From the IMG/VR virus record IMGVR_UViG_3300001279_000031, positions 22,340 through 86,339 of that record: DNA of 64,000 nucleotides. One strand, written 5' to 3'. The first letter of the stretch is position 1. Each line of letters begins with the position of its first letter. The notes beneath the pieces were generated by a model. The model worked only from the letters and a program-made list of their open reading frames with translations, had not been told where the DNA came from and made no database searches. The translations under genes and the position numbers were made by a program. Positions 2 to 48,139 of the stretch are shown here, in pieces. This DNA comes from a virus.

Positions 2-3000
2 GATCTTGCCAAACGCCTTGTTACAATAAGAGACGAGTAGACATGGACACAGTTTGAGACGTTATTGCATTCTGCTAAACATAATTTTATAACTTGTAAA
101 ATAGCTAAAGATCCACAAAGCCAGTTTGTAAAGATACAATTTGTTAATAATACTGTTGATTACAAGGCTATGCAATATCCTAAAATATGGTCTTCAATGT
201 TGTTTAACAATAACAATATATTGAATACAGAAAAATATGAAGATAGTAATTATCATACAAAACTAACAACGCTTGGAAATAAAATAATAAGTAGAGCTAC
301 ATCTTTATACAAATCTATAGACGCTGGTTTTAAAAGTAGCGATAAAAAATATGATATTATACTTGTTGGCGGATAGAAATAGTAGATTGACTTAAATACG
401 CACGAAGGAATAGAATATACTAAAGATCTTTTAGTAAAAATACTCAACAATGTCGGTATTATGATAGATAAAGCTACCATAAACAATGCATTGTTGTCTA
501 GTAATTATTATAATGCTACTCAATTAAGTGAGTAGTAGTTATTACATACATTTGTTACTGGTTCTGCTGGTAAGAATATAGGTGGATTACGTAATATATT
601 TAGTCTATTAGAAGATGTACAAAAGCAAGCATTACATAACAATAATATAATAGACAATGTACCTACTAGATTTTCTACATCGAATCGTATAAGTGCAAAT
701 AACATATATGGTGATAATGGTTTTATAAAATTTTTAGCACAACAATATTCTAAATCTTATACGGATACTGAAGAAATGATGAGTTTGGGTGCTAATGGCA
801 ATAAACTATATCCTATAGCTGATAATAGTTTTGTATTTGATAGAGTAAATGAATTAAATACAGATAAAGATGTTGTATCTAAATTAATGAACAATACATA
901 TTCTAAAGGTTCTTTAATATTAAATCAATTATTGTATAATAAAAATACCAAAATAAATACAGAAACCTTTGTTAATTTTAAAGAAGACCTATCAAACGAT
1001 AAGGGTAGTGATTACTTCAAAATAACAGATAAAGAAGATTATATAGCAAAGTTATGTGCTATGGAAAGTAATAGAATTGTATTTCCAACAATAGCAGATA
1101 AAAAAACATACTACTTTTTAACTGGCGTTGAATTGCCTCATATGCAAACGCAGTTCCATTTAAATGCCGACAATAAAATTATATTTGATTATGGTCAAGA
1201 CTTTTTAAATCAATTTAATAAATATATTGATGATGATTATGCATCAGTAAAGCTTGGTATAAAACAAGTAGATGATAGTAAAGAAGGAAAACTAGATCCA
1301 GAATGGATATCACCAGAAAAGCGTATTAAAAATTATTAGACACCTAGTAAACTTACAATGAATAATGGTACTACTAAAAAAATAGCACCTAATTGTACTA
1401 GGTTTAGATTTATAAGTGGCATATATTATCGAGATAATAAAGGTGAACGATTTGTTGATTTCAACAATTTAAATAGTACTCCGAAAGATAATTTATTATA
1501 GTTTGAAAACATGTTCTATAACACTGAGTATAAGAACGATATGATATCTACTATAATTGATAAATTAATGACAGATGAATTGAACTATTGTAAAGAATTA
1601 GGTATTGTAGATTTTAAAATCAATCCTGCTACTAATAAACCAAATATAAACACTATAAAGAATATTTTATTAGATCAATAGAAATTAAATTCTGTAATTT
1701 CAGTTTATTCTAATCACACAATACCAACAGTAAGTAATCATGCAGAAGCATATGCAGTATATGACACTATAGCTAGATGCTTAATGAATAGTGTTATTTC
1801 TGTAAATGAAATAGAAAAATTATTTAGTGGTGATCCAGCATTTTATAAGTAGGTTGCTATTCAAAATAAACCATTGGATGTATCTATAGATAAAATAAAG
1901 CGTTTAGGTGCATTAACTTCCACTGGTACAAACAATAGACTAGATTTTGAAGCATATCCAATAAATACAAAATATACTTGTGCTGAATTAAAAGATATCG
2001 AAGTAGGTTCTGATATGTATGAACAATTACGAGATACATTTGTAAACGGTGCAATTAACGATCTATATAAAACTGGTGTTGTTACTCATAAAGAAAATGA
2101 ACTAACTGAAAATGAGAAATCTTTAATTCAATAGGCTAAAACATTAGGTTAGTCTAGAGCGGATAGTTATAAATCTGGTATTAATGTCGCTGATGCTGCT
2201 GCTTATATATCTCCGAAGATGTATTATAATTTGATGCGTATGGTTGGTAACATCGACAACAAAACAGCATTAGGTTATAAGTTAATGACTGAAGAAGATA
2301 GATTGTATTTAAATACAAAAGAAGCATAGTACTTATTAAAATATGCCAACAAGTCAATACAAAAAGAAGGTGATAGATACTATATAGATGATCCAGCAGA
2401 TAAGGTACTTTCCGATAAAGATTTGTATAAAACAGCAATGAATTCATCAATGTAGGTATTGAAATATATGGCATTTGGAAATAGAGATCAATAGAATCAA
2501 GATGGTTCTACTAATACGTTAATACCTTATTACAATAAAATGGCATTACAACCACTATTTAAAGGTATAGCTACAGGTTCTATTAAACCATTATATGATA
2601 GAATGACAGATAAAGATGATCCAATAGATATGATCATGTTTGAATCCGCTGTTAAATCTGGCTCACAAAATCCTATGGATTATTATTCTGATTTTAAGAC
2701 AGGTTCTGTAAACGACCTAAATAAACTTACTACTTATCAGTAGTAGTTTAAATATCTCAGACAATAGTTAAATACCGATCCACACGACGAATTAGAATCA
2801 TAGTTTTGTACGTAGCCATTAAAGATTGCAATGTCTAACATGCAAGATGATGAAAGTTACGGTATTGGCGAAGACGTATTAAAAGGCAATGAAATAAAGT
2901 AGTAGGTATTTGATTCTGTGAAAGCATTGTCTGATATTGGTGCAAATGATATAAAAAAGAAATTATTTGATAAAGAAGGTAATATCAACGATTAGAATTT

Positions 3001-6000
3001 TATAAATATGTTACGTGAGCAAGCTGAATAGTCTAATGCTGATGATAACATATTAAATGCGCTAATTGTAAAAGACGGTAAACCAACAATACCATTGGCT
3101 GCATTATCAGATAATGCGTGGCTTGAAAGTAGATTAATATCCTATATCAATAAACAAGTTATAGACATTAAAGTAGCTGGTGTACCAATGATACAAAGAT
3201 CTGATTTTGGTATAAAGAGTGATAGTAAAATCAAAACATTATCAGATAAAGATATCAATTTAGGTTATAAACTAAATATGTATAATTAGGATGGTTCAAT
3301 GGATTGCATACCATCTATTAGTTTGTTTAGAAACATAATACCGAATTATAATATGATATCTTTTAATGAAGCTAAAAAATGGTTAATTGACGAACATATA
3401 ATAGGTAATAAATCAAAAATTGGTGGAATATCATATCGTGTTCCTACATAGGCAGCGGCTTCAATATCTGCAATAAAATTTTGTGATGTATTACCAGCAA
3501 TGACTGGCGATAGCATTGTATTCCCTGACGAATTTACTAAATTAACTGGTTCAGACTTTGACGTTGATAAAGCATTTTTTGCAATATTTGAATATTCGAA
3601 TATATTTGATCACACAATCGATGGTATTTCTCATGGAATACATAGAAAAGAAATTGATACTACCAAGACACTAACTCAACAAGATCCAGGAGCACTTAAA
3701 AATAGAATATTACAGAACTTCATACGTATTCTTACAACAAAAAGAATACAAGATCAATTAAAATAGTCTATTGATAATCCTACTTAGTTGGTTAAGGGTT
3801 TATTAGCTGATATCGAATCATCAGATAATACCAAAGTTAATTTGCCACTATCTTAGTATTCGCTATCATATCAAGAGTCTAAAAAGTTTGAATACACTAG
3901 TGGTAAACTTGGTATAGGTCCAGTAGCATTGAATAATGCTAATCATGTACTAACATAGTTAACGCATTTAGCCTTTGGTAGTGAATCAAAAGATTATAAA
4001 TTATTGAATGCTTTAAATGCTACAAAACTAGATAGAGTATATGATATACCTGATGGATATACAGTTCCAAATAGAATACTAGACTGGACATCTGCTATGA
4101 TTAATGCTTTTGTAGATGTAGCCAAAGACCCATATATAGTTAAGTTAAACGTAATGCCTTATACTTATACAATGGTTATGTATCTAATACGAAGCGGATT
4201 TGGTAAACGAACTTTTTATTTCATTAATCAACCTATTTTAAAGGATATAGCAAAAGCAGTAGAAAGAACTAAAGGTAAGTATGGTATTAATAAGTATAAA
4301 ACTAGAAGTTAGATACAGCAAGATACTATTGATTAGATATTAAACAAATATGATCCAAATAGTAGAATACGTAATAGAATAATATCTGAACAAAAACATA
4401 ACGATAATTTCATCAATAACAAAATATTAGATTTATTTAAAGTTAATGGCACAGAAAAAGATACAAATGGTTAGTTACAACCAAACTGTGTGTTACGTTA
4501 GTTATTAGTAAACAGACAATAGTATGATAATGATGAATTTAATCAAAGACAAATAATTACATACCTGGCTTTTTAGCGATTGTCATTGTATGCGAACGGT
4601 TTGTCACAGTTAGTTATGTCATCTAGAATCGACACAAAACGTACTGGTAAATCGATTGCAGAACAAACGTTATATACAAATAAACTAAACGAAGTTAAAT
4701 TAAATCGTAATAATATATTTGATGGCGAATTATTAAAACGTTACTTTTCAGACACGTTCTTAAATAAAGAATTTGACAATAGTATTACTTTAGCAAATAG
4801 CATATTATAGGATCAATTGATAAGGACACAACCGGTTATTAAACAATTAGCTAATAATATATTATTCACTCTTGGTAAGATAAATTATTGTAGTAATGAG
4901 ACGTTAACTAAAATAAACAGATCAATAGAAGCAGCAGTTAAATCAGAGTTTTTTAATGATTACGTTGTTAAAAACAATATGAATTTATAGGATATGTTTT
5001 ATGGTGACAATACTATTGCTAAACGTGTATTGAAATTAAAGAATGATATATATAGTGGTAAAATACCAAATATGTTAAATCAAGATGGTTCTATTATAAA
5101 TGATTTCTTATCTTACTTGTTACCAGAAATAAATGTAAATTCAGCAATAAGTAATGACCCAGATTTAATCAATACATCAAACCTATTATCTAGTGACGCC
5201 GCTGAAAATAACAATTTAATAAATCATTGGGCTGATATGCTAGAAAATGAAAATCCTGAAATAAATTAGCTAGCAAAGGATTTAGCGGTATACGCATTTT
5301 ATACTTCCGGTGACAATCCTGGATCTAATTCCTTTTTTAAGTACTTACCCAATTCGTTTAGAGAATCTATTGGCTATAATGATTTTATACGTAATAAAAT
5401 GGAATAGCTAAAGAATGATTCTGGATTGCCTATATCAATATCTAAAGATGTATTACTTAATAATTGGTATAATGATGATATAGTAAGACCAATCAAACTG
5501 ATAGAATATGGTACATCAGTAGATAATGAAACCGGTATACTTAACAATCACACTCCTTCAATGTTAATAACGTTGAATGCTAATAAAACTAAAGACGATC
5601 CTAATGGCACACCTATATTGATCTATGGTAAACGTAGTAATCATAATATTGGTAGTGATATACTTCCAGCTAGTTATGCCGCAGATGATTTAAAAAATAA
5701 AATACCAATATGGTCCCCATATATAAAAGTAAATTATGGTAGATCAAATGATCCTACTACTACCTTAATATATCGTATTGTTGGTTATACTAGTGAGGAG
5801 AATAAAAATAATAAAGTTAAATCTTTTTATCCTATTTATGGTCTCACTAATAAAAATGGTATGAAATATCATGGGCACACAATTGTTGAATATGGTCAGT
5901 AGTCAAATCTACTAAAAGCAAATCACTTATAGTCATAGATGTGTGCAGCAAACGAACTAATGAATTATTCATCATTTTTAGATTATTACGATAATTATAA

Positions 6001-19842: not shown

Positions 19843-21768
19843 TTACCACAAGCTTAATTGTCGTGGTTGGATCTTTTCAATTATTTTACGTGCTTCACTT
19901 ATATAATAAGCAAAGTTTATATTTTTTGGCATTTCTGTCGGTAATTTATTCAGGAGCGTTACTCCTGAAGCGCAAACTATAGTTTCATAATTAGTTCTTC
20001 TACCATTAACGATTTCACATCTCTTTAAATATGCGCCATCAGTAGATGCATAAAATCTATTTATACGTTGAACTAATTCGTTATTGTATTCTACTGAAAA
20101 TTTCTTATTTACTTTTTGGTATGTAAGAAATCTTCTAATATCTTTACAGGATTTTATTGTCTGCTCTATTGGTGTTCCAAATACCAAATAGTCTATAACA
20201 GCATCCTTTATAATAAGATATTCCATTCCCTTACCTAATTTGGTTTTGTTTATGAACATACCTTTTAACTTAATTAGTTTCTTGTCACGTGATTCAGTAA
20301 AGCCTTCACTAACTGCTATATAATCATTTATAGCAAATTGATACATTGCTTCATACTTATCTTCTTCTAAATTAAGTTGTGTTAGCTTTTCCCATTCATT
20401 ACATTTCTGTTTGAATAGTTCATATGTGCTCTTTTTTACAATAACAAACAAACCATCAGTATTTGCTTGAACAATCTTTATACCAACGTTTACTAATTTT
20501 TCAACTAGCATCAATAGTAGTAATTGACCATTTATCCTAATCTTCATAACAGTTTCTGGGGAATATACCCAACTGTTCTCATTTTGAAGATTGCCAGACA
20601 GTCCATTTAAACAATATTTAAACGTTATATTCTTTAATTTTTCTCCATTATGCTTTGCTTCAATTCTTTCTTTTTTAATATTAGAATAAATCTTTACAAA
20701 CACATTATTTAAATGTGGTGGACAAAAATTATAAGATATTAATAACGATGGATATAGTGATTCTACATCAACATCTATTAAATATTCATCTACTTTGGGT
20801 TTAATAGTCTCAGGATTGTTCTGAGTATGAATACCACCAACCCCAACTGAATACTTACAATGATCATAAATAAATTTATTATTGTAAGCCCTTCTTCCGG
20901 CTGATACAGTTTGTTCTTTCATTTCTTCAAGAACTTTTTTCAAAATTGGAGTATCAAATTTTATAAATGGCAAAATAATATCATTTAATTTTATAGTAGC
21001 TTTTGGACTACGTAAATCTTTTATATCTTCCCATTTTAAATGAGTACTCTGTAGGTACTTTTGTTTAAGAATTTCCATACCAATATTAACATCATCTCTA
21101 GATAAACAAGATATGTTATATGTATCTTCAATCCATATTCTTAAATCTAATTGTTCTTTACAACGATTTAATAGTTCTATAGTAGCATTAACATCATTTA
21201 GATTATAAGCTATCATTTCATCTATTTTATTAATAGGTAAAAAATCATTGAAATCGCCATTAAATTCTTGTACATTATTAAAGTTCATAGTTACTTCCAT
21301 TTCCTTTAATCCTGTTCTTAATTTAGATGAAAACAGCATTGTTAATAAATCAATACTTTCAAAGTATTGCATATATTTCCAATGCTTCCACATGTCTTGA
21401 TTTTTCTCATTTATAATTATATCTGATAAGTTTTTAATACTATTACATATTCGTGTATATGGCGAATTTATAAGTATTGTACCATATTCAATTATATAAT
21501 TAATAATAGGATTATCATAATGATGATTGTTATATCCTACAAAATAAGTATCTGTATGAAATTTCTTGTGTAATTTATAATCATTCTCCCAACCACGTTG
21601 CTGGGGAATCCTTTTAAAGAATTTTATTATATCTATAATATCATTTTTTCGTTCTGATATTTCAAACATAACAATTTTCTCAGTTTCAGTATTCTTAATA
21701 GTAAGATGAAAAACATTTACAAACACTTCAATATCAAATACCCATAATGTTTTATCTCTTATTATCAT
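19843..21768 (-). CDS. polB: Family B DNA polymerase
   Basis: ExoI FDIE, ExoII GYNNHHYD, ExoIII YNLNDV; polymerase motifs DVESLYPS, KYCLNGLSG, ANTDG and KG. Confidence 0.93.
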   Translation of the reverse strand: MIIRDKTLWVFDIEVFVNVFHLTIKNTETEKIVMFEISERKNDIIDIIKFFKRIPQQRGWENDYKLHKKFHTDTYFVGYNNHHYDNPIINYIIEYGTILINSPYTRICNSIKNLSDIIINEKNQDMWKHWKYMQYFESIDLLTMLFSSKLRTGLKEMEVTMNFNNVQEFNGDFNDFLPINKIDEMIAYNLNDVNATIELLNRCKEQLDLRIWIEDTYNISCLSRDDVNIGMEILKQKYLQSTHLKWEDIKDLRSPKATIKLNDIILPFIKFDTPILKKVLEEMKEQTVSAGRRAYNNKFIYDHCKYSVGVGGIHTQNNPETIKPKVDEYLIDVDVESLYPSLLISYNFCPPHLNNVFVKIYSNIKKERIEAKHNGEKLKNITFKYCLNGLSGNLQNENSWVYSPETVMKIRINGQLLLLMLVEKLVNVGIKIVQANTDGLFVIVKKSTYELFKQKCNEWEKLTQLNLEEDKYEAMYQFAINDYIAVSEGFTESRDKKLIKLKGMFINKTKLGKGMEYLIIKDAVIDYLVFGTPIEQTIKSCKDIRRFLTYQKVNKKFSVEYNNELVQRINRFYASTDGAYLKRCEIVNGRRTNYETIVCASGVTLLNKLPTEMPKNINFAYYISEARKIIEKIQPRQLSLW

Positions 21769-23707: not shown

Positions 23708-24331
23708 TTATTCTACTGTTGTTTCTGAATGTATTCCTACATTTATTTCTAGTTCACTATCATTACTATAATTATTGTATTTACGATAATCTTGTAATAG
23801 TAGTGAATTTTGTTCTGCTAATTGAGAATACATAGCTGCCATTCTAGTATATTCTTCAGCTACTTTCTTTGCATCTTCAGCACTTGTTCGATTAAGAGCA
23901 CTTACTTCGATTATTAATTTCTCCAAGTCAGAAAAATAAGTAGTTTTCTCACCTTTCGACCTATCAAATTCATCACATGCTTGTGCTACAGAGGCTGTAT
24001 TTGGCATAATTATGTTTTCTGAAGGATCAGTAAGAGGAAATCGCAGTGCTTTTCCTTCTTTACTATCAAAAATTATTACACCATGCTCATTAGCATCAAT
24101 TTCTATGTGAGCTCCTAAAATAGGAATTCTACTAATAACTATTTGTTTAAACGGTCTTAGCATTACATTCTCACCAGCTGCTCTACGTTTATTATAAGTA
24201 AGATCAGCATTTGTTCTGTTTACTGTATATAAATCACGAAAACAGAATTGTCCGTATTTACGGAGAATTTCATTATTTTGATCATGTATTGCGGTAATAC
24301 GCATTACATGTTCCGTTGATTGATTTTCCAT
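23708..24331 (-). CDS. Hypothetical protein
   Basis: 207-aa ORF with an AT-rich leader. Confidence 0.75.
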   Translation of the reverse strand: MENQSTEHVMRITAIHDQNNEILRKYGQFCFRDLYTVNRTNADLTYNKRRAAGENVMLRPFKQIVISRIPILGAHIEIDANEHGVIIFDSKEGKALRFPLTDPSENIIMPNTASVAQACDEFDRSKGEKTTYFSDLEKLIIEVSALNRTSAEDAKKVAEEYTRMAAMYSQLAEQNSLLLQDYRKYNNYSNDSELEINVGIHSETTVE

Positions 24332-24339
24332 TCTTGATA

Positions 24340-26160
24340 AATTTATTTATTAATAATAATAGTTGTTATAGGTTTTCAATACTATTGGTAGTCATTAACT
24401 ACGAATAGTCTCAAATCAATGAGTTACCCTAAACATTTACTACTTCAATGATTCTTTCAAATCATTAATAGCTAGTAAGCTATTAAATGACTATTAATTA
24501 TGATTTTTTGTAATTTTTTATGACTTTTGTAATTTTTGTATAAAAAGAATTTATAAAGTGTGATATACGATTAATTTTTAAACTAGTTATCGTGGTTGTT
24601 ACCTTAATAACGGGATTCATTCCGAAGAATTGAATAGCTACGCCCATCTTTTAAAAACAATGTACCTTGTTGTCATGAATTTCGGGTACATGACTACCAG
24701 TATAGCTGCCGGAATTACCCTCACCCACTATATGAAATTGTTTATACTGCATGAATATATTTCTATATTCTACGAATATCTAGGATTTCAACCTATTGCC
24801 AGAGTCTACAGGCTTGCTTCTGCTACCTTAACACATGTTAGTACGACGTACTTTGTGGATATACTTATGACGGTTCAGCGCACATATTTTACCTTACATT
24901 TGTGCCCTACTAATAAGTTTAGATATATTTTTAGCGATACCGGTCGGCAGTTAAGTTAGTCTGACTTGTTAATTAAAACTATCAGGGGACTTCTAACTAA
25001 GACGAACTTTTGGTTATATTACTTTAGCTTCTTTAGCTATTTCATAATGAGTTTTCCTTCTCATGACACATACTAATATATTTATGTAAACTCTTCTTTC
25101 ATTGTTTACCGTATTTAGTACTCTAGTCATATTTATACTTTCTCTTCTTATTGGATATAAGCGATGCTCACTATAAATACTTACATGTATTTTAATTGCT
25201 TGTAATTACAATAATTATTTAAAGACAGATAATTACTGCCAATGTATTTTATAAATATTAATAAAACTTATCTTATCTTAAGAAATATATCGAATTAGTG
25301 ATATAGCCCACTTGTTCGGCTTTTGTTTGTCATTTATTTTTGACTATAAACTTATTTTATATTCCGCTTCGTTTACTATGCGGTAGTTCCGTAACATAAT
25401 AGTAATTTTCTCAGCCAATGTTTATTATATTCTGCTCATTATTTATAAGTATAAGATAGGTTAGGCACAAAGTGATTAGCTATCTGTTCTTCCTACTTAT
25501 AAGACATTGCTACCATCCCCTTAAACGGAGAAGTATGGGATTAAACCATTAATTTTTATATAGACCCTGTATTTACCATACAGCTATAGTTCACAACTAT
25601 AGTCCTTGTTTACTTTATTAAATGTTACTTCACATCCAAGCTTCATAAGTACAAGTTCTTTTATAATATAGTTTATTATAAACATGGACAATTTTACACT
25701 TATTTACAATATAAGTCATTAACCAATGCACTGAACACTCTTGTGATAATAATTTTTATAGTTACTTATGGACAGCAACTTTTCTACGTTATCTGTATTA
25801 CAATGATAATATAAGTGTTGTTGGACTTTTTCACTTATTGCTACTCGTGTTTAGACTATAAACCCTTTTTGATATTGTAATTGAAATTACTAACGGTTTA
25901 TATTTATTGTCAAGGTTTCTTTCCATCTATTATCATTAATGGCGCTACATAGCGATGCCTTACTATCATATCAGGATAGGTTTGCATAAACTGTTTATCC
26001 GATACCTTTGTAACATTAGGATTATTCTGTATATATCACCAATCGGTTCTCATATATACTTGCGTGCGTTACGTCCATTCACGCCTTATACATAGTTTTT
26101 CATACTATATATATTTCGTAGCTACTTTTGTGCTGTACACATATCTTACTACCCAGTTTG
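24340..26160 (-). ncRNA. Putative large structured non-coding RNA region
   Basis: ~1.8 kb with no credible ORF and many hairpins whose loops read UUCG or GNRA on the - strand. Boundaries are unknown. Confidence 0.5.
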
Positions 26161-26168
26161 TTTAATTG

Positions 26169-26573
26169 TTAAATAGGCTCTTTAATGATACAAGCCCGTA
26201 TTAATGAATCTAATCCAAGAGTATCCAAATTCTTGTTTATATCTATACTATCGTGTCGGTGTATAGAACGACTTACCGTTTTCCATTTTGTTATATAGAT
26301 TGGAAAATATCTATATTTTGTTCTCCATCTAATTACCACTTTAGATAAAGAGTTATTATTCACACTTACAGTGCGATTTAATGCATTCTGTACATTTACT
26401 TTACCTGTTCTCGATATATCTATATTGAGAGGTAATTCCAATTGATTCGGTGTAAATGAAGCTGTTTTTATTTCTACTGCATTTGCCGTAGAAGGTTTTG
26501 TTATTATATTACCAATAAAACTACCGGCTATTATAAAAACAATACATATTAGATAGGACTCAAACTTCCGCAT
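26169..26573 (-). CDS. Membrane-anchored or secreted hypothetical protein
   Basis: N-terminal hydrophobic segment. Confidence 0.65.
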   Translation of the reverse strand: MRKFESYLICIVFIIAGSFIGNIITKPSTANAVEIKTASFTPNQLELPLNIDISRTGKVNVQNALNRTVSVNNNSLSKVVIRWRTKYRYFPIYITKWKTVSRSIHRHDSIDINKNLDTLGLDSLIRACIIKEPI

Positions 26574-28111
26574 ACATCTTTAATTTTATTACGAAGTTTA
26601 TCTATAAATGAAAAATCCTTATCAATTGTAGTTCGAGCATCTAATGGCTTAAAATAATTAGCAATTTCATTAAGTTTTTCACTTATTGATTTTTTATCAT
26701 CTTCTGTTAAAGTGTTATTATCTAATCTATTTTTAACATCTTTAGGAAAATAAGTAGTCGTTAAAAGTCCTAATGTCATTTTGTCAGCTGCGACACTTGG
26801 ATCTACAACACGATTTTTATCTTTATCATGCGTTGTAGCTTTTACATAATTTTTTAGCATCGTATCAACATCAAACAATGGATTTAATAAAAAATTCAAT
26901 TCAGGCATTGCACTCATTTCATGCGATATCTCCTGTATGCTAGGTGTTGTTTTTATTTTTTCACCACCTGTTTGTGTATAAACAGGATCACCTGCTTTAT
27001 CTTTTATTGCATTGCCATCTTTATCTTTTACTTCAGTTTTAACGATTGGAGTATATGATAATTTTTCTATTGCTTTTTCTTTAGAACTAACTTCAACCAA
27101 TGATGCTACTAAATCGGCTATCGTTTCATCTGAGGTACTTTTAGTTTGGAAGGCCTTTTTAACAAGTAAAAATGAGCTGATTGGATTTTTCGCATTCTTA
27201 ATATTTGTCCGAACAAGGCTGGACATACCGTTGATAAGAAAGGAAGTTCCAACAATTTTACATAATTCTTGTATCAAATCACCTATTGTAGCTTTTTTTG
27301 CTTCATCTTTTGCGTTTTCATCTTTTGCGTTTTGTACATCAAATGCTCTTAAAAAGGTTATAGCGTCAAACAAAGTAGCACCATTCATATATTTACTACC
27401 ATGTAATATTGCATTTAAACTATCAGGCAATTGCTCTTTAGTTATTTTCGTAGCATCTTTTGTTTCAATGCCATTAGCAATATCTGTTTTAGCTTTTTCA
27501 TCTTTCTTTTCATCGGCCTTTGCTTCTTTTGCTAATTCTTTAGGAACTTTAACATCAGTAAATTTTAGTTCTAACTGATCATCATTCTTATTTTCAAGTT
27601 GCTTCGGTGTCATATCTGGCAGTGTTACGCCAAATAAAGCACACGCATCCTTAAGAGCATTTGTAGTATGCTTATTTAATAATAATTTTGCTTCATAATC
27701 ATTATTAACAGCGCCTCTTAATTTAATAAATGATAAAACCATAATCGGATCCATCATCGAATCAGCCATTTCTACCAATTTAGCATCTGGCTTTTTACCA
27801 CCTTTATCATTGTCCATATAACGACGTTGACTAACGTATGCTAGTCTTGATAAAGTATCTAAAGATATTTTACTATCTTCAATGCTTTTTTGTAGATCTG
27901 TCGTAACATTAGTACCAATACTGATTGGTGCTGGCAATGGTTTTTTTACTTCTTCTGCTTTAACAGTTTCAACTTTAACTGTACTAGTTTTAGGAGTACT
28001 TTCCTTTTTATCTACTTTCTCTACAATTACAGGTTCTTTTTCTGTATTATTTGCAGGAATTATTTTAGGTGCATTGTTTTTATTAACGCCCTTGTTATGT
28101 TTCTTACTCAT
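26549..28111 (-). CDS. Large Lys/Asp/Glu-rich hypothetical protein
   Basis: 520-aa ORF without TAG. Confidence 0.8.
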   Translation of the reverse strand: MSKKHNKGVNKNNAPKIIPANNTEKEPVIVEKVDKKESTPKTSTVKVETVKAEEVKKPLPAPISIGTNVTTDLQKSIEDSKISLDTLSRLAYVSQRRYMDNDKGGKKPDAKLVEMADSMMDPIMVLSFIKLRGAVNNDYEAKLLLNKHTTNALKDACALFGVTLPDMTPKQLENKNDDQLELKFTDVKVPKELAKEAKADEKKDEKAKTDIANGIETKDATKITKEQLPDSLNAILHGSKYMNGATLFDAITFLRAFDVQNAKDENAKDEAKKATIGDLIQELCKIVGTSFLINGMSSLVRTNIKNAKNPISSFLLVKKAFQTKSTSDETIADLVASLVEVSSKEKAIEKLSYTPIVKTEVKDKDGNAIKDKAGDPVYTQTGGEKIKTTPSIQEISHEMSAMPELNFLLNPLFDVDTMLKNYVKATTHDKDKNRVVDPSVAADKMTLGLLTTTYFPKDVKNRLDNNTLTEDDKKSISEKLNEIANYFKPLDARTTIDKDFSFIDKLRNKIKDVCGSLSPI

Positions 28112-31921: not shown

Positions 31922-34714
31922 TCAGCCGACTACAACGTTCACAATCTTATTCGGAACAACGATAATCTTCCTGATATTCTTCCCGGCAATCCATTTCTGT
32001 GAATCGTCATGCGCAAGTACCGTCTTTTCAATGGCTTCGCGGTCAATGTCGACAGGGAAATCAATGGAGAAACGAGCTTTGCCGTTAAACGAGATTGTGT
32101 ATTTAACGGAATCTTCTTTCAGATATTCTTCATTGCACACAGGCCATTGTGCATCGCAAACGGATGCCGTATGTCCCAATGCTTCCCATAACTCCTCGGC
32201 AATGTGCGGGGCAAACGGAGCAATAAGCACAACCAAGTCACTCAACACCTGCTTGTTGTTGCACGTCAAAGCTGTGAGTTCGTTTACGCAAATCATGAAT
32301 GCACTGATAGAAGTGTTGTATGAGAAACTCTCTATATCTCCGGTTACTTTCTTTATCAGTTTGTTAATGCTTTTCAACTCTTCTTTCGTGGCTTCACCGT
32401 CGACGGGGATAAACTCGTCGGCCTTGTTCCAGAATAAGAACCAGAATTTGCGCAAGAAACGGTGAACACCGTCTATTCCGTTAGTATCCCACGGTTTCGA
32501 TTGCTCAACAGGCCCGAGGAACATCTCGTACATGCGCAGTGTGTCGGCGCCGTATTTCTCAACAATCATATCGGGATTAACGACGTTGAACATCGACTTG
32601 CTCATCTTTTCAACAGCCCAACCGCAGACATACTTGCCATTTTCCAATACAAACTCTGCATTGTTATATTCCGGTCTCCACTTCTTGAAAGCCTCAACGT
32701 CCAATATATCATTCGATACAATATTTACGTTAACATGTATTGGCGTAGTATCATATTTGTCTTTCAACCCGAGAGAAACAAAAGTGTTTGTATCTTTAAT
32801 TCGGTAAACGAAGTTGCTTCGTCCCTGAATCATTCCCTGATTAACCAGTTTTTGGAACGGCTCTTCCTTAACCGAAACTCCTAAATCAAATAAAAACTTG
32901 TTCCAGAAGCGCGAATATATCAAGTGCCCTGTTGCATGCTCGGTACCTCCCACGTACAAATCGACATTCTGCCAATAACGGTCGACCTTTTCCGAAACCA
33001 ACGCCTTATTGTTATGCGGATCCATGTAACGAAGATAGTATGCAGATGAACCTGCAAAACCCGGCATAGTATTGAGTTCCAACGGATAACCTTCTTTTGT
33101 CTTCCAGTTCTTGGCGCGTCCCAATGGCGGTTCGCCGGTTTCCGTCGGTAAATATTTGTCTATTTCAGGCAATTCAAGAGGCAGTTCGTCATCACTTAAA
33201 ACATGAGGTATTCCGTCTTTGTAATACACCGGGAACGGTTCACCCCAATAACGTTGGCGACTAAAGATGGCATCGCGCAGGCGGTAGTTTATCTTTACTC
33301 GCCCGAGATTATTCTCGGTTACGTACTTCTTTGTTGCTGCAATTGCCTCTTTTACTGTCATGCCGTTGAGATTAAGTTGTCCTTCCTTCTCTTGTCCCGG
33401 CTTGGGTGAATTCATCATTATGCCGTCCTTGGCATCAAAGCTCTCCTCGCTGACGTCGCATCCTTCAATCAGCGGACGAATTTCAAGGCCGAACTCTTTG
33501 GCAAAAGCATAGTCGCGACTGTCGTGCGCCGGTACGGCCATAATGGCTCCCGTGCCGTATCCTGCCAATACATAATCGCTAATCCAAATGGGAATAGCTT
33601 CATTTGTCAACGGATTTATAGCATACGAACCTGAGAATACTCCCGTAACCTTGCGGTCGGCAATACGTTCACGTTCGGTTCTTTTCTTTGTTCTTTCCAA
33701 ATATGCCTTCACGTCTGTTTGTTGAGCCGGAGTAGTCAACTCGGCAACCAACTCACTTTCCGGGGCAAGTACCATGAATGTAACACCGAAGATAGTATCT
33801 GCACGCGTAGTGAAAATAGTAAACTCAACGTCGCTGTCTTTTACTTTGAACTGCATTTCAGTACCTTCGCTACGCCCTATCCAGTTACGTTGTGTCTCTT
33901 TAAGCGAATCTGTCCATTCGATAGTGTCCAATCCGTCAAGCAGGCGTTGGGCGTATGCCGACATACGCAAGCACCATTGGCGCATCTTCTTCTGCACAAC
34001 AGGATAACCGCCGCGCAACGAAATTCCTTCAACAACTTCATCATTGGCAAGCACCGTACCTAACTTCGGACACCAGTTAACAACCGAATCTCCAAGATAA
34101 GCTATACGACAATTCATCAAAGCATCGCTTTTTGCCTTTTCGTCCTTGGCTTTCCATTCGTCGGCAGTAAACAAAAGTTCTTCGCTGCAAGCAGCGTTAA
34201 TGCCTTCAGTACCTGTGGTTTCAAACTTCTCTATAAGTTTATCTATCGGTTGGGCTTTGTCCAGGTCTTTATCATAATAACTGTTGAACATACGGATGAA
34301 AGCCCACTGTGTCCAGTGATAATATCCGGGGTCGCACGTACGTACTTCACGGTCCCAATCGAAAGAAAAGCCAATCTTATCCAATTGGCTGCGATAACGG
34401 TTTATATTGTTTGTTGTTGTAATTGCAGGATGTTGTCCGGTCTGAATGGCATATTGTTCTGCTGGAAGCCCGTATGCATCATATCCCATCGGATTAAGAA
34501 CATTAAATCCTTGTAACCGTTTGTAACGGGCATAAATATCTGTAGCAATATATCCCAACGGATGCCCAACATGCAAACCCGCACCGGAGGGATAAGGAAA
34601 CATATTCAGTACATAGTATTTCTTCTTTGTTTCGTCTTCTACAACATGGTACGTTTTATTCTCGACCCATTTTTTTTGCCATTTCTTTTCAATCTCGCTG
34701 AAATTATATTCCAT
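31922..34714 (-). CDS. leuS: Leucyl-tRNA synthetase of Bacteroidales host type, intact (930 aa)
   Basis: [14 protein letters not shown] (HIGH), KMSKS, CP1 editing motifs FTTRADT and [15 protein letters not shown]-terminal IVNVV; visibly GC-richer than its flanks. Confidence 0.98.
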
Positions 34715-34735: not shown

Positions 34736-34789
34736 ATTTTAATTTTTTTACCATTTTGATAATTTTAATTTAAAAGTAAGCATATTAGC
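34736..34789. repeat. 54-bp direct repeat, copy B (right flank of host insert)
   Basis: Matches 31721-31774 at 51 of 54 positions. Confidence 0.95.
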
Positions 34790-35123
34790 ATATTTGCATA
34801 CCTTATTTTGCTAAATTCCCATGTCCTTCATTCAAATCACGTTTGAACATGATTGCCGTCAAATAGCTTGTATTATATATAATATAATATTAGGGGTCTG
34901 GAATGCTTACCAATTACTTTATTCATATGATAATAATTAATAATTATTTGTTAATGAAGAATATTTCGTTATTCATCATCATTGTAGCGCATCTTTCTAT
35001 CCTTTTTTTTAAAAGGATTTAATTTAGCATGTTTTGCTTTAGTGTGAAAAGTAGGATTATTATCGTTACCACTTCTCTTTTTTTTGTCCTTAAAAGTTTT
35101 GCTCATGACACATAACTTTATTC

Positions 35124-43169: not shown

Positions 43170-43195
43170 TAACGTAAGATAGATCAAAAAGTTGC
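43170..43195 (-). promoter_or_regulatory. ECF-type promoter GCAAC-N16-CGTTA (leftward)
   Basis: - strand reads GCAAC tttttgatctatctta CGTTA. Confidence 0.7.
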
Positions 43196-43394: not shown

Positions 43395-43420
43395 GCAACC
43401 TTTACTTGTTCTATACGTTA
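43395..43420 (+). promoter_or_regulatory. ECF-type promoter GCAAC-N16-CGTTA (rightward)
   Basis: GCAAC ctttacttgttctata CGTTA, ~24 nt before ATG 43444. Confidence 0.7.
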
Positions 43421-47278: not shown

Positions 47279-47305
47279 GCAACAAATCAAATAAATATTA
47301 CGTTA
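47279..47305 (+). promoter_or_regulatory. ECF-type promoter GCAAC-N17-CGTTA, upstream of the tRNA/late operon
   Basis: GCAAC aaatcaaataaatatta CGTTA in an intergenic gap. Confidence 0.7.
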
Positions 47306-48067: not shown

Positions 48068-48139
48068 TGCCCTATGTGTGTAATGGTAGCACGGGAGCTT
48101 CTAAACCTCCAAGTCTGAGTTCGAATCTTAGTGGGGCCG
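48068..48139 (+). tRNA. Amber suppressor tRNA (anticodon CUA) with a Gln-type body
   Basis: Acceptor TGCCCTA/TGGGGCC, D-arm GTGT-AATGGTA-GCAC, anticodon loop TT-CTA-AA (48101-48103), T-arm CTGAG-TTCGAAT-CTTAG, discriminator G; CCA is not encoded. Confidence 0.93.

Follow-up and report, generated by a model that had tools for sequence, protein, structure and literature searches.

The DNA investigated here, referred to as the window, is a stretch of 64,000 nucleotides (nt), positions 22340-86339 of an 86-kb IMG/VR virus record that stems from a wetland metagenome. On its minus strand it harbours a gene-free element of 1837 nt (24332-26168), an environmental and divergent representative of a very large, structured non-coding element that occurs family-wide. 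The limits of the element were set by calls of open reading frames (ORFs) and by a family profile that matched only here, and its sense strand was taken from the flanking genes. Upstream it is bordered by the stop codon of a 134-amino-acid (aa) gene without an assigned family (26169-26573, minus strand) and downstream by the start codon of a 207-aa gene (w207; 23708-24331, minus strand). In relatives, the gene after the gap is homologous to the latter (E 6e-8 to 3e-4, 4/14 loci), whose product matched no Pfam or PHROG family. A family-A-type DNA polymerase is encoded at 19843-21768 (minus strand) and displays 57% identity with those of cr4_1, cr10_1 and cr114_1, all of which are Suoliviridae (delta crAss-like phages). 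Judged by its sequence, the phage is a wetland crAss-like relative of this family. The Suoliviridae are among the most abundant human-gut phages, and we know of no part of their biology that has been examined at the bench.

Under table 11 the element contained three ORFs of at least 40 aa and no more: one of 49 aa on the minus strand, and two of 109 aa (TTG start) and 46 aa on the plus strand. The three minus-strand frames held 42, 64 and 71 stops per 612, 612 and 611 codons, respectively, and the longest open run on this strand was 63 codons under table 11, 63 when TAG or TGA was read through and 116 when TAA was read through. TAG is recoded in this phage, as a CUA suppressor tRNA at 48069-48138 shows, and was therefore the code to test for hidden ORFs. 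Neither TAG read as glutamine (TAG=Q) nor table 4 (TGA=W) gave any further minus-strand ORF of at least 60 aa in the element, which is gene-free on both strands under all three codes. The lack of a convincing ORF reported in a preliminary description of this DNA was thereby borne out, with only short ORFs and dense stops in all minus-strand frames. No table-15 (TAG=Q) gene call covers the region, and reading through TAG, TGA or TAA opens no gene.

A gene-free gap was present at the same syntenic place in 12/12 annotated reference genomes, where it measured 1.85-2.2 kb and contained no credible coding sequence. These references were cr4_1, cr10_1, cr114_1, cr52_1, cr115_1, cr56_1, cr109_1, cr130_1, cr131_1, cr272_1, cr6_1 and Dulem virus 42, and they represent five subfamilies (Boorivirinae, Loutivirinae, Uncouvirinae, Oafivirinae and Bearivirinae) in addition to Dulem virus 42. 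Among 29 IMG/VR loci fetched via the polymerase, 27 displayed a 2.5-kb gap that was ORF-free under table 11 and TAG=Q, and for all but one also under TGA=W; in the other two (L012 and L018) the upstream DNA is too short to reach the site. The 27 loci represent few lineages, most being mutually 97-99% identical and two being at 80-83%. The gap separates the sigma-factor gene cluster from the w207/w167/w188-like genes, which lie upstream of the DNA polymerase. Because the flanking genes (sigma factor, w207, w167 and w188) are homologous between the window and the references, the gap site is orthologous. A tRNA gene (Arg or Leu) is located about 1.3 kb downstream of the element in relatives (L034 6720-6794, L036 7100-7184, L038 7181-7267).

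Within subfamilies the gaps align over their full length at 70-88%, and between subfamilies in short colinear blocks only. In three subfamily groups, pairwise identity was higher in the gap than in the flanking 1400 nt on either side (0.770 versus 0.627, 0.678 versus 0.637 and 0.614 versus 0.485), and indels in multiples of three made up 16-27% in the gap versus 42-60% in the flanks. Because identity exceeds that of the flanks and the indels ignore the reading frame, we take the gap to evolve as constrained non-coding sequence that is better kept than the flanking genes. A decaying remnant of lost genes, or a neutral spacer, is scarcely credible: nothing beyond the missing ORFs speaks for it, and it is contradicted by conservation above that of the flanks, by the covarying helices described below and by the retention of the element in all five subfamilies as well as in a wetland lineage with a polymerase identity of only 57%.

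The same data bear on the idea that coding capacity is hidden in the element, in the form of conserved small ORFs, a deviant genetic code or a gene riddled with introns. The recoding of TAG and the small ORFs annotated in cr109_1 (gp34, antisense) and Dulem virus 42 (n = 13) would fit such an explanation. It is highly improbable, however, as all three kinds of stop are dense in the minus-strand frames, no single reassignment opens more than 116 codons, the indels are mostly not multiples of three, no group I or II intron was matched at E<=10, and the annotated small ORFs differ between genomes, with most references annotating none. The ORFs placed inside the element in a few public records are tiny and mostly antisense or unconserved. 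Examples are cr109_1 gp34 (L040 5175-5612), cr114_1 gp096 (L036 3790-3951), cr10_1 gp_19744 (L035 2396-2581) and those of Dulem virus 42 (L161 2336-4344). In cr114_1 and cr10_1 the invariant-loop hairpin described below lies under or beside such an annotated ORF. These annotations are probably miscalls.

A family hidden Markov model (HMM), built from 21 other gaps with the window excluded, found two colinear minus-strand matches inside the gap and none elsewhere in the 64 kb. With nhmmer these delimit a 3′ core domain (24737-24993, E 2.8e-7) and a 5′ conserved domain (25824-26104, E 1e-5). Four subfamily HMMs matched nothing in the window, and the all-family HMM was the only one that did. The window copy is the most divergent, giving a single 39-nt match in pairwise blastn against 21 relatives, and it is also shorter (1837 nt) and richer in AT (GC 0.30 versus 0.34-0.39 in relatives) than any other, with a minus-strand composition of A 0.40, T 0.30, G 0.16 and C 0.13. 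A blastn search of the gap against 50,697 phage records returned no match, and single-sequence blastn and nhmmer against the loci L002-L033 gave chance-level matches only.

In the 3′ core, RNAalifold applied to a MAFFT alignment of 22 sequences predicted 14 pairs, of which 13 showed double compensatory changes. They include a hairpin with a YGCAA loop and a 5-bp long-range helix between the 5-mer preceding CCAACCGUUAU and the 5-mer preceding UAUAAAYAA, 200-270 nt apart. The helix was assessed by the complementarity of the 5-mer before CCAACCGUUA to the 5-mer before UAUAAAYAA, which in the window read ACUGC and GCAGU. It occurred in five sequence versions (ACUGC, CAAGC, ACUAC, AGUGC and AGUAC), and the exact complement was found at the expected place in 17/18 anchored sequences. 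In the window the covarying 5′ strand ACUGC (24947-24951) is followed by the conserved CCGACCGGUAU (together 24937-24951, minus strand) and the 3′ strand GCAGU (24746-24750) by the conserved UAUAAACAA (together 24738-24750, minus strand). A long-range ctgccg/cggcag pairing had been proposed earlier; it is present in the sequence and in the minimum free energy fold, and its 5′ strand was correctly placed. Its 3′ partner at 24706-24711 is kept in 1/18 sequences, the window alone, and was probably wrong, whereas 24746-24750 is kept in 17/18 anchored relatives.

The pairs were counted in alignment A2, made with MAFFT without regard to structure (16 pairs). Cells forming a standard pair amounted to 90.5% versus 65.7±1.6% after shuffling, cells with a change on both sides numbered 77 versus 23.6±3.4, and the covariation score was 0.687 versus 0.232; none of the three was reached in 500 shuffles (0/500 each). 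Changes on both sides occurred at 15/16 pairs. A covariance model built from A2, R1, gave one match each in 31/36 loci, and the remaining five do not cover the site. R1 matched the window at 24753-24960 with 83.9 bits, a score for a sequence that was in the training set. An alignment of 28 distinct sequences fitted to the covariance model gave counts similar to those of A2, which lean towards the model because the alignment was fitted to it. The suggestion of one very large or several structured RNAs is thus supported by the conserved gap, by the profile match obtained without the window and by covariation. Conservation and covariation in relatives, whose absence had been named at the outset as refuting this reading, were both found, the syntenic gap being present in the 12 references and the 27 IMG/VR loci.

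Three hairpins lie within the 3′ core of the window (all minus strand). UAGG-UUGAAAU-CCUA (24781-24795), of the UGGAAAU type, is conserved and covarying family-wide, and taken alone it folded no better than many shuffles (z -0.41, 59/200). GAAUAUA-GAAA-UAUAUUC (24753-24770; -7.0 kcal/mol, z -4.9, better than 200/200 shuffles) lies within a 21-nt insertion that is private to the window phage, between AUAUUCGU and GCAGU. GCACA...UGUGC (24880-24905) sits at the place of the family YGCAA-loop hairpin. Its 16-nt loop is different and the covariance model aligns it as a deletion, and because of these two features its equivalence with the family hairpin is uncertain.

The 5′ domain is marked by a hairpin at 26029-26059 (minus strand), recognised by its motif and by covariation of its stem, in which 8 bp close the invariant loop GAGAACCG-AU-UGGUG (26037-26051). 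The motif GAGAACCG-N2-3-UGGNG was present as a single copy in all 21 family gaps that were searched, and the window likewise has one, at this position (minus strand), with no other copy in the 64 kb. The sequence of the stem varies from genome to genome and remained 80% paired versus 49.8±3.6% after shuffling, with a covariation score of 0.748 versus 0.223 (both 0/500); in two weaker measures significance was not reached (43/500 and 33/500). Over 22 nt the window hairpin was also matched exactly by an unrelated viral contig (L179 349-370; 46% GC), which contained no other family motif. Next to the invariant-loop hairpin, GCGUG...CACGC (26062-26084, minus strand) corresponds to family helix 233/253, in which 4/4 pairs have both sides changed. 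GUAAU-UUCA-AUUAC (25877-25890, minus strand) corresponds to a hairpin of the family that has an AUCAA-type loop and a stem that varies between genomes, as read by eye and uncounted. The conserved motif AAACACGA was located in the alignments at 25845-25852 (minus strand).

Outside the two domains, the minus-strand hairpin AGUG-GGCUAUAU-CACU (25297-25312; z -2.8, 4/200) is the counterpart of family helix 924/939. In all, the window copy keeps the invariant-loop hairpin, the AUCAA-type hairpin, AAACACGA, the hairpin at 25297-25312, GAAGUCC...GAUAG, the long-range helix with its flanking conserved strings and the UGGAAAU-type hairpin. It has lost the hairpin with an RUUGUAA loop and the YGCAA loop, and has gained the GAAA hairpin insertion. 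Further hairpins, all on the minus strand, are twin adjacent ones of 8 and 6 bp at 25567-25602 (-12.2 kcal/mol, z -2.6, 0/200), which are stable in the window phage, a 10-bp GAAA hairpin near the 3′ end (24446-24467; -7.7 kcal/mol, z -4.3, 0/200) that is not followed by a U-run, and a cUUCGg hairpin (24616-24634) that folds no better than shuffles (z -0.37, 61/200). All the tetraloop hairpins named in the preliminary description are hence present on the minus strand; those at 24753-24770, 24446-24467 and 25567-25602 folded better than all 200 shuffles, but those at 24616-24634 and 24781-24795 did not. As for the element as a whole, its two halves each folded better than 20/20 shuffles (z -1.73 and -3.42), in line with the stability beyond shuffled controls that a structured RNA had been expected to show.

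Helices were also sought in an all-against-all scan of 16 non-redundant sequences, in which helices with at least three double-covarying pairs were counted. Antiparallel pairing gave nine helices on the sense strand and three on the antisense strand, while neither the parallel-register control of the sense strand nor ten column permutations gave any. The top helices include hairpins also formed by the window, those at 26062-26084 and 25297-25312. In the 3′ core, G.U cells outnumbered A.C cells (33 versus 15); in the invariant-loop stem they were seven versus nine. The sense strand is also favoured by the helix scan, by the GCAA and GAAA loops and by a purine-rich composition common to the sense strand of the neighbouring genes, and the RNA strand is quite likely the minus strand.

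These strand counts bear on whether the element might instead be a cis-acting DNA region, i.e. a replication origin, a packaging site or a partition site with hairpins in single-stranded DNA. Such a region would be well placed directly upstream of the replication gene block, Watson-Crick covariation fits DNA hairpins equally, and the invariant-loop hairpin pairs equally on both strands. Against it stand the excess of G.U over A.C cells in the core and the nine well-supported sense helices versus three antisense. No tandem arrays or iterons were found in the element beyond one 13-nt pair, there is no long AT-rich unwinding tract distinct from the background, and the cumulative GC skew has no turning point at the element. 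About 2 kb of constrained sequence, in which one helix bridges 200-270 nt and numerous unpaired loops are invariant, greatly exceeds what known phage origins require. A cis-acting DNA region is therefore improbable.

What lies in this stretch is probably a diverged copy of a structured non-coding RNA gene, very large at 1.8-2.5 kb, which all sampled Suoliviridae-type phages keep. Its compensatory changes show that the element folds, probably as a single very large RNA. The blocks are always colinear and never found apart, with one covariance model match per locus and one invariant loop per gap; the length is held at 1.85-2.5 kb in all lineages, and within subfamilies the whole 2 kb, not the blocks alone, exceeds the flanking genes in conservation. 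These features argue against several separate elements, that is at least two smaller structured RNAs, or leader, trailer or processing signals in a long polycistronic early or middle transcript. Such a division is unlikely, although the conservation does come in blocks (the 5′ domain, the 3′ core and a few hairpins) with poorly alignable stretches between them, and the sole pairing that would link the two domains has few double changes. The tRNA genes or tRNA-like element about 1.3 kb downstream in relatives would make processing of a long precursor plausible. The authors of a study on the Cellulophaga phage phi14:2 also write of two intergenic regions and of RNAs in the plural (10.1101/2020.03.07.982082).

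A number of observations weigh against the reading as a very large structured RNA. A candidate pairing of 6 bp, GAAUAU/AUAUUC, would join the 5′ domain and the 3′ core; it involves mostly invariant or G.U positions, and because of this the existence of one RNA is not established. On the gappy alignment of the 5′ domain RNAalifold predicted no pairs (0), and the 300-nt core of the window alone folded no better than shuffles (z -0.50, 58/200). Since single-sequence thermodynamics is only mildly supportive, the case rests on the comparison with relatives. Slid controls of A2 gave 30-46% paired cells and covariation scores of 0.03-0.12, a contrast that is inflated since the counted structures derive partly from the same sequences. 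In the helix scan the total of stacked runs equalled the control (53 versus 52), and at a threshold of at least two covarying pairs the scan was noisy, the antisense parallel control giving 15 helices; for these two reasons only the top helices count. The strand signal is modest in the invariant-loop hairpin, whose antisense pairs as well as its sense (81.4% versus 80.0%). Sigma-70-like promoter sites numbered 29 in the element versus 24.1±4.6 expected, without excess, no terminator stands out, and an extracytoplasmic-function-type promoter (GCAAC-N15-18-CGTTA) is absent at the gap. Finally, no close relative of the window lineage that spans the element was found, and the window-specific hairpins lean on one sequence.

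Three sites of the GCAAC-N15-18-CGTTA type do exist in the window, versus 0.15 expected, at 43170-43195 (minus strand), 43395-43420 (plus strand) and 47279-47305 (plus strand); none is near the element. A sliding-window screen of the alifoldz type, made on four Loutivirinae sequences, was noisy and also scored some coding windows strongly. Its strongest consensus fold (-30 kcal/mol, z about -12, 15 shuffles) was found in columns 600-750 of the wide Loutivirinae alignment, which are annotated as coding and sit in a hypothetical gene of about 1.5 kb within about 1400 nt upstream of the gap (cr4_1, cr52_1, cr56_1 and cr109_1).

The searches for the window lineage itself gave few sequences. With the 207-aa protein a single homologue (85% identical) was obtained, from contigs no longer than 2398 bases, and the polymerase found one 82% relative (L002), whose contig falls short of the site. 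No related loci were found among viral contigs with the 520-aa and 207-aa flanking proteins, nor among metagenome contigs with the 207-aa protein, and a 21-base motif sought in metagenome contigs gave three loci, all chance matches. A loose motif scan of IMG/VR returned 14/116 family members among the matches listed, the rest being mostly unrelated contigs; an exact 17-mer scan returned 28 loci, 24 of which were family members and none window-like. A variant about 98-99% identical was present in the wetland run X4, with about 1.1% differences in the gap versus 1.1-2.6% in the flanks, at a depth too low for these figures to be weighed. A block of 78 nt (25352-25429, minus strand), which includes the hairpin CCGC...GCGG (25364-25390), matched a 547-nt contig from the same wetland run at about 88%. 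This contig (run X1, depth 23, with loose ends in X4) has only 25352-25429 in common with the element and differs on both sides. This match suggests that a different organism or phage of that wetland carries a related piece of the element.

How the element would work may be depicted as follows. It would be transcribed leftward, in the direction of the flanking genes, either together with an early or middle operon or as part of it, and its fold would comprise, at the least, a 5′ domain (about 25824-26104) and a 3′ core (24746-24951). The transcript might then accumulate as a stable RNA, by analogy with the long non-coding RNAs of phi14:2. Its invariant loops, GAGAACCG-NN-UGGNG, CCAACCGUUAU and UGGAAAU, could serve as docking sites, either in tertiary contacts or for a protein of the phage or its host. 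With low confidence, we suggest that the RNA may serve as a scaffold acting in trans, in replication or in the switch to middle or late expression, and not as a cis-acting DNA site; this role is suggested because of the position of the element and the precedent of phi14:2.

An element of 2 kb that is better kept than its neighbouring genes, has covarying long-range helices and matches nothing in Rfam must, in our opinion, do something central. The wetland copy shows that the element predates the gut radiation, and it defines a minimal conserved core consisting of the invariant-loop hairpin, the CCAACCGUUAU junction and the UGGAAAU hairpin. A wider proposal, which we put forward with some hesitation, is that these phages possess a hitherto undescribed class of structured RNA, giant in size (about 2 kb), which is shared by all Suoliviridae and extends beyond the gut to environmental relatives, and whose invariant loops mark a catalytic or protein-recruiting core used in replication or host takeover. 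If true, it would be among the largest conserved RNA folds of bacteria and phages, ribosomal RNA aside. No description of the Suoliviridae element was found in the literature, the scope of which did not extend to supplements, possibly with genome maps showing the gap. The terms 'non-coding' and 'intergenic' do not occur in Yutin 2021 (PMC7886860) or in the 2023 Crassvirales review (PMC10136315).

Among known RNA families, Rfam gave no match within 24000-26600 even at E<=10 (4227 families, including GOLLD, ROOL and group I and II introns), and in four relatives it gave only tRNAs at gathering score. This covariance model search agrees with the earlier failure to assign a known family. Elsewhere in the window a match to RAGATH-9 was recorded at 34775-34920 (minus strand), barely at gathering score (75.4 versus 75.2 bits, E 4.7e-11) and directly upstream of a 930-aa ORF (31922-34714). 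Group I and II introns resemble the element in size range, A-rich joining regions, GNRA-type loops and long-range helices. They were rejected since no match was obtained at that threshold, the flanking genes are complete without split exons, and there is no intron-encoded protein. GOLLD and ROOL are very large, intricately folded RNAs of phages and prophages whose function is unknown, and they are often found near tRNA genes. The element is of the same phage-borne, large kind, and relatives of the window phage carry tRNA genes at about 1.3 kb downstream; it differs from GOLLD and ROOL in being two to three times longer and in giving no covariance model match.

The phage phi14:2 (Steigviridae) is, like the window phage, crAss-like, and it has a gene-free stretch a few kb upstream of its DNA polymerase and co-oriented with the genes. 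In its GenBank record this stretch measures 1.7 kb (2905-4601) and lies some 5 kb upstream of PolB; eight small ORFs had been annotated in it until the depositors withdrew them in June 2020. The composition of this stretch (A 0.39, T 0.31, G 0.16, C 0.14) is nearly identical to that of the window gap. The study cited above reports early and persistent transcription of the intergenic regions g004-g005 and g005-g006, stronger than that of most genes, and calls the transcripts long non-coding RNAs of unknown function (10.1101/2020.03.07.982082). Expression is thus reported for phi14:2, whereas the element of the window is known here from sequence alone. Comparison of phi14:2 with the family gave no nhmmer match, its best R1 match lay inside a coding sequence, the invariant motif was absent genome-wide and the flanking proteins were unrelated; no homology was found for crAss001 either. 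Because no homology was found, the phi14:2 stretch is regarded as an analogue and not as a shown relative.

The gap element of the gut Suoliviridae shares with the window the syntenic site, homologous flanks and colinear blocks, as well as the GAGAACCG-NN-UGGNG loop, the long-range helix beside CCAACCGUUAU and UAUAAACAA, and the UGGAAAU hairpin. The copy in the window differs from it in its wetland instead of gut origin, in being without the RUUGUAA-loop hairpin and the YGCAA loop, and in carrying the private 21-nt GAAA insertion.

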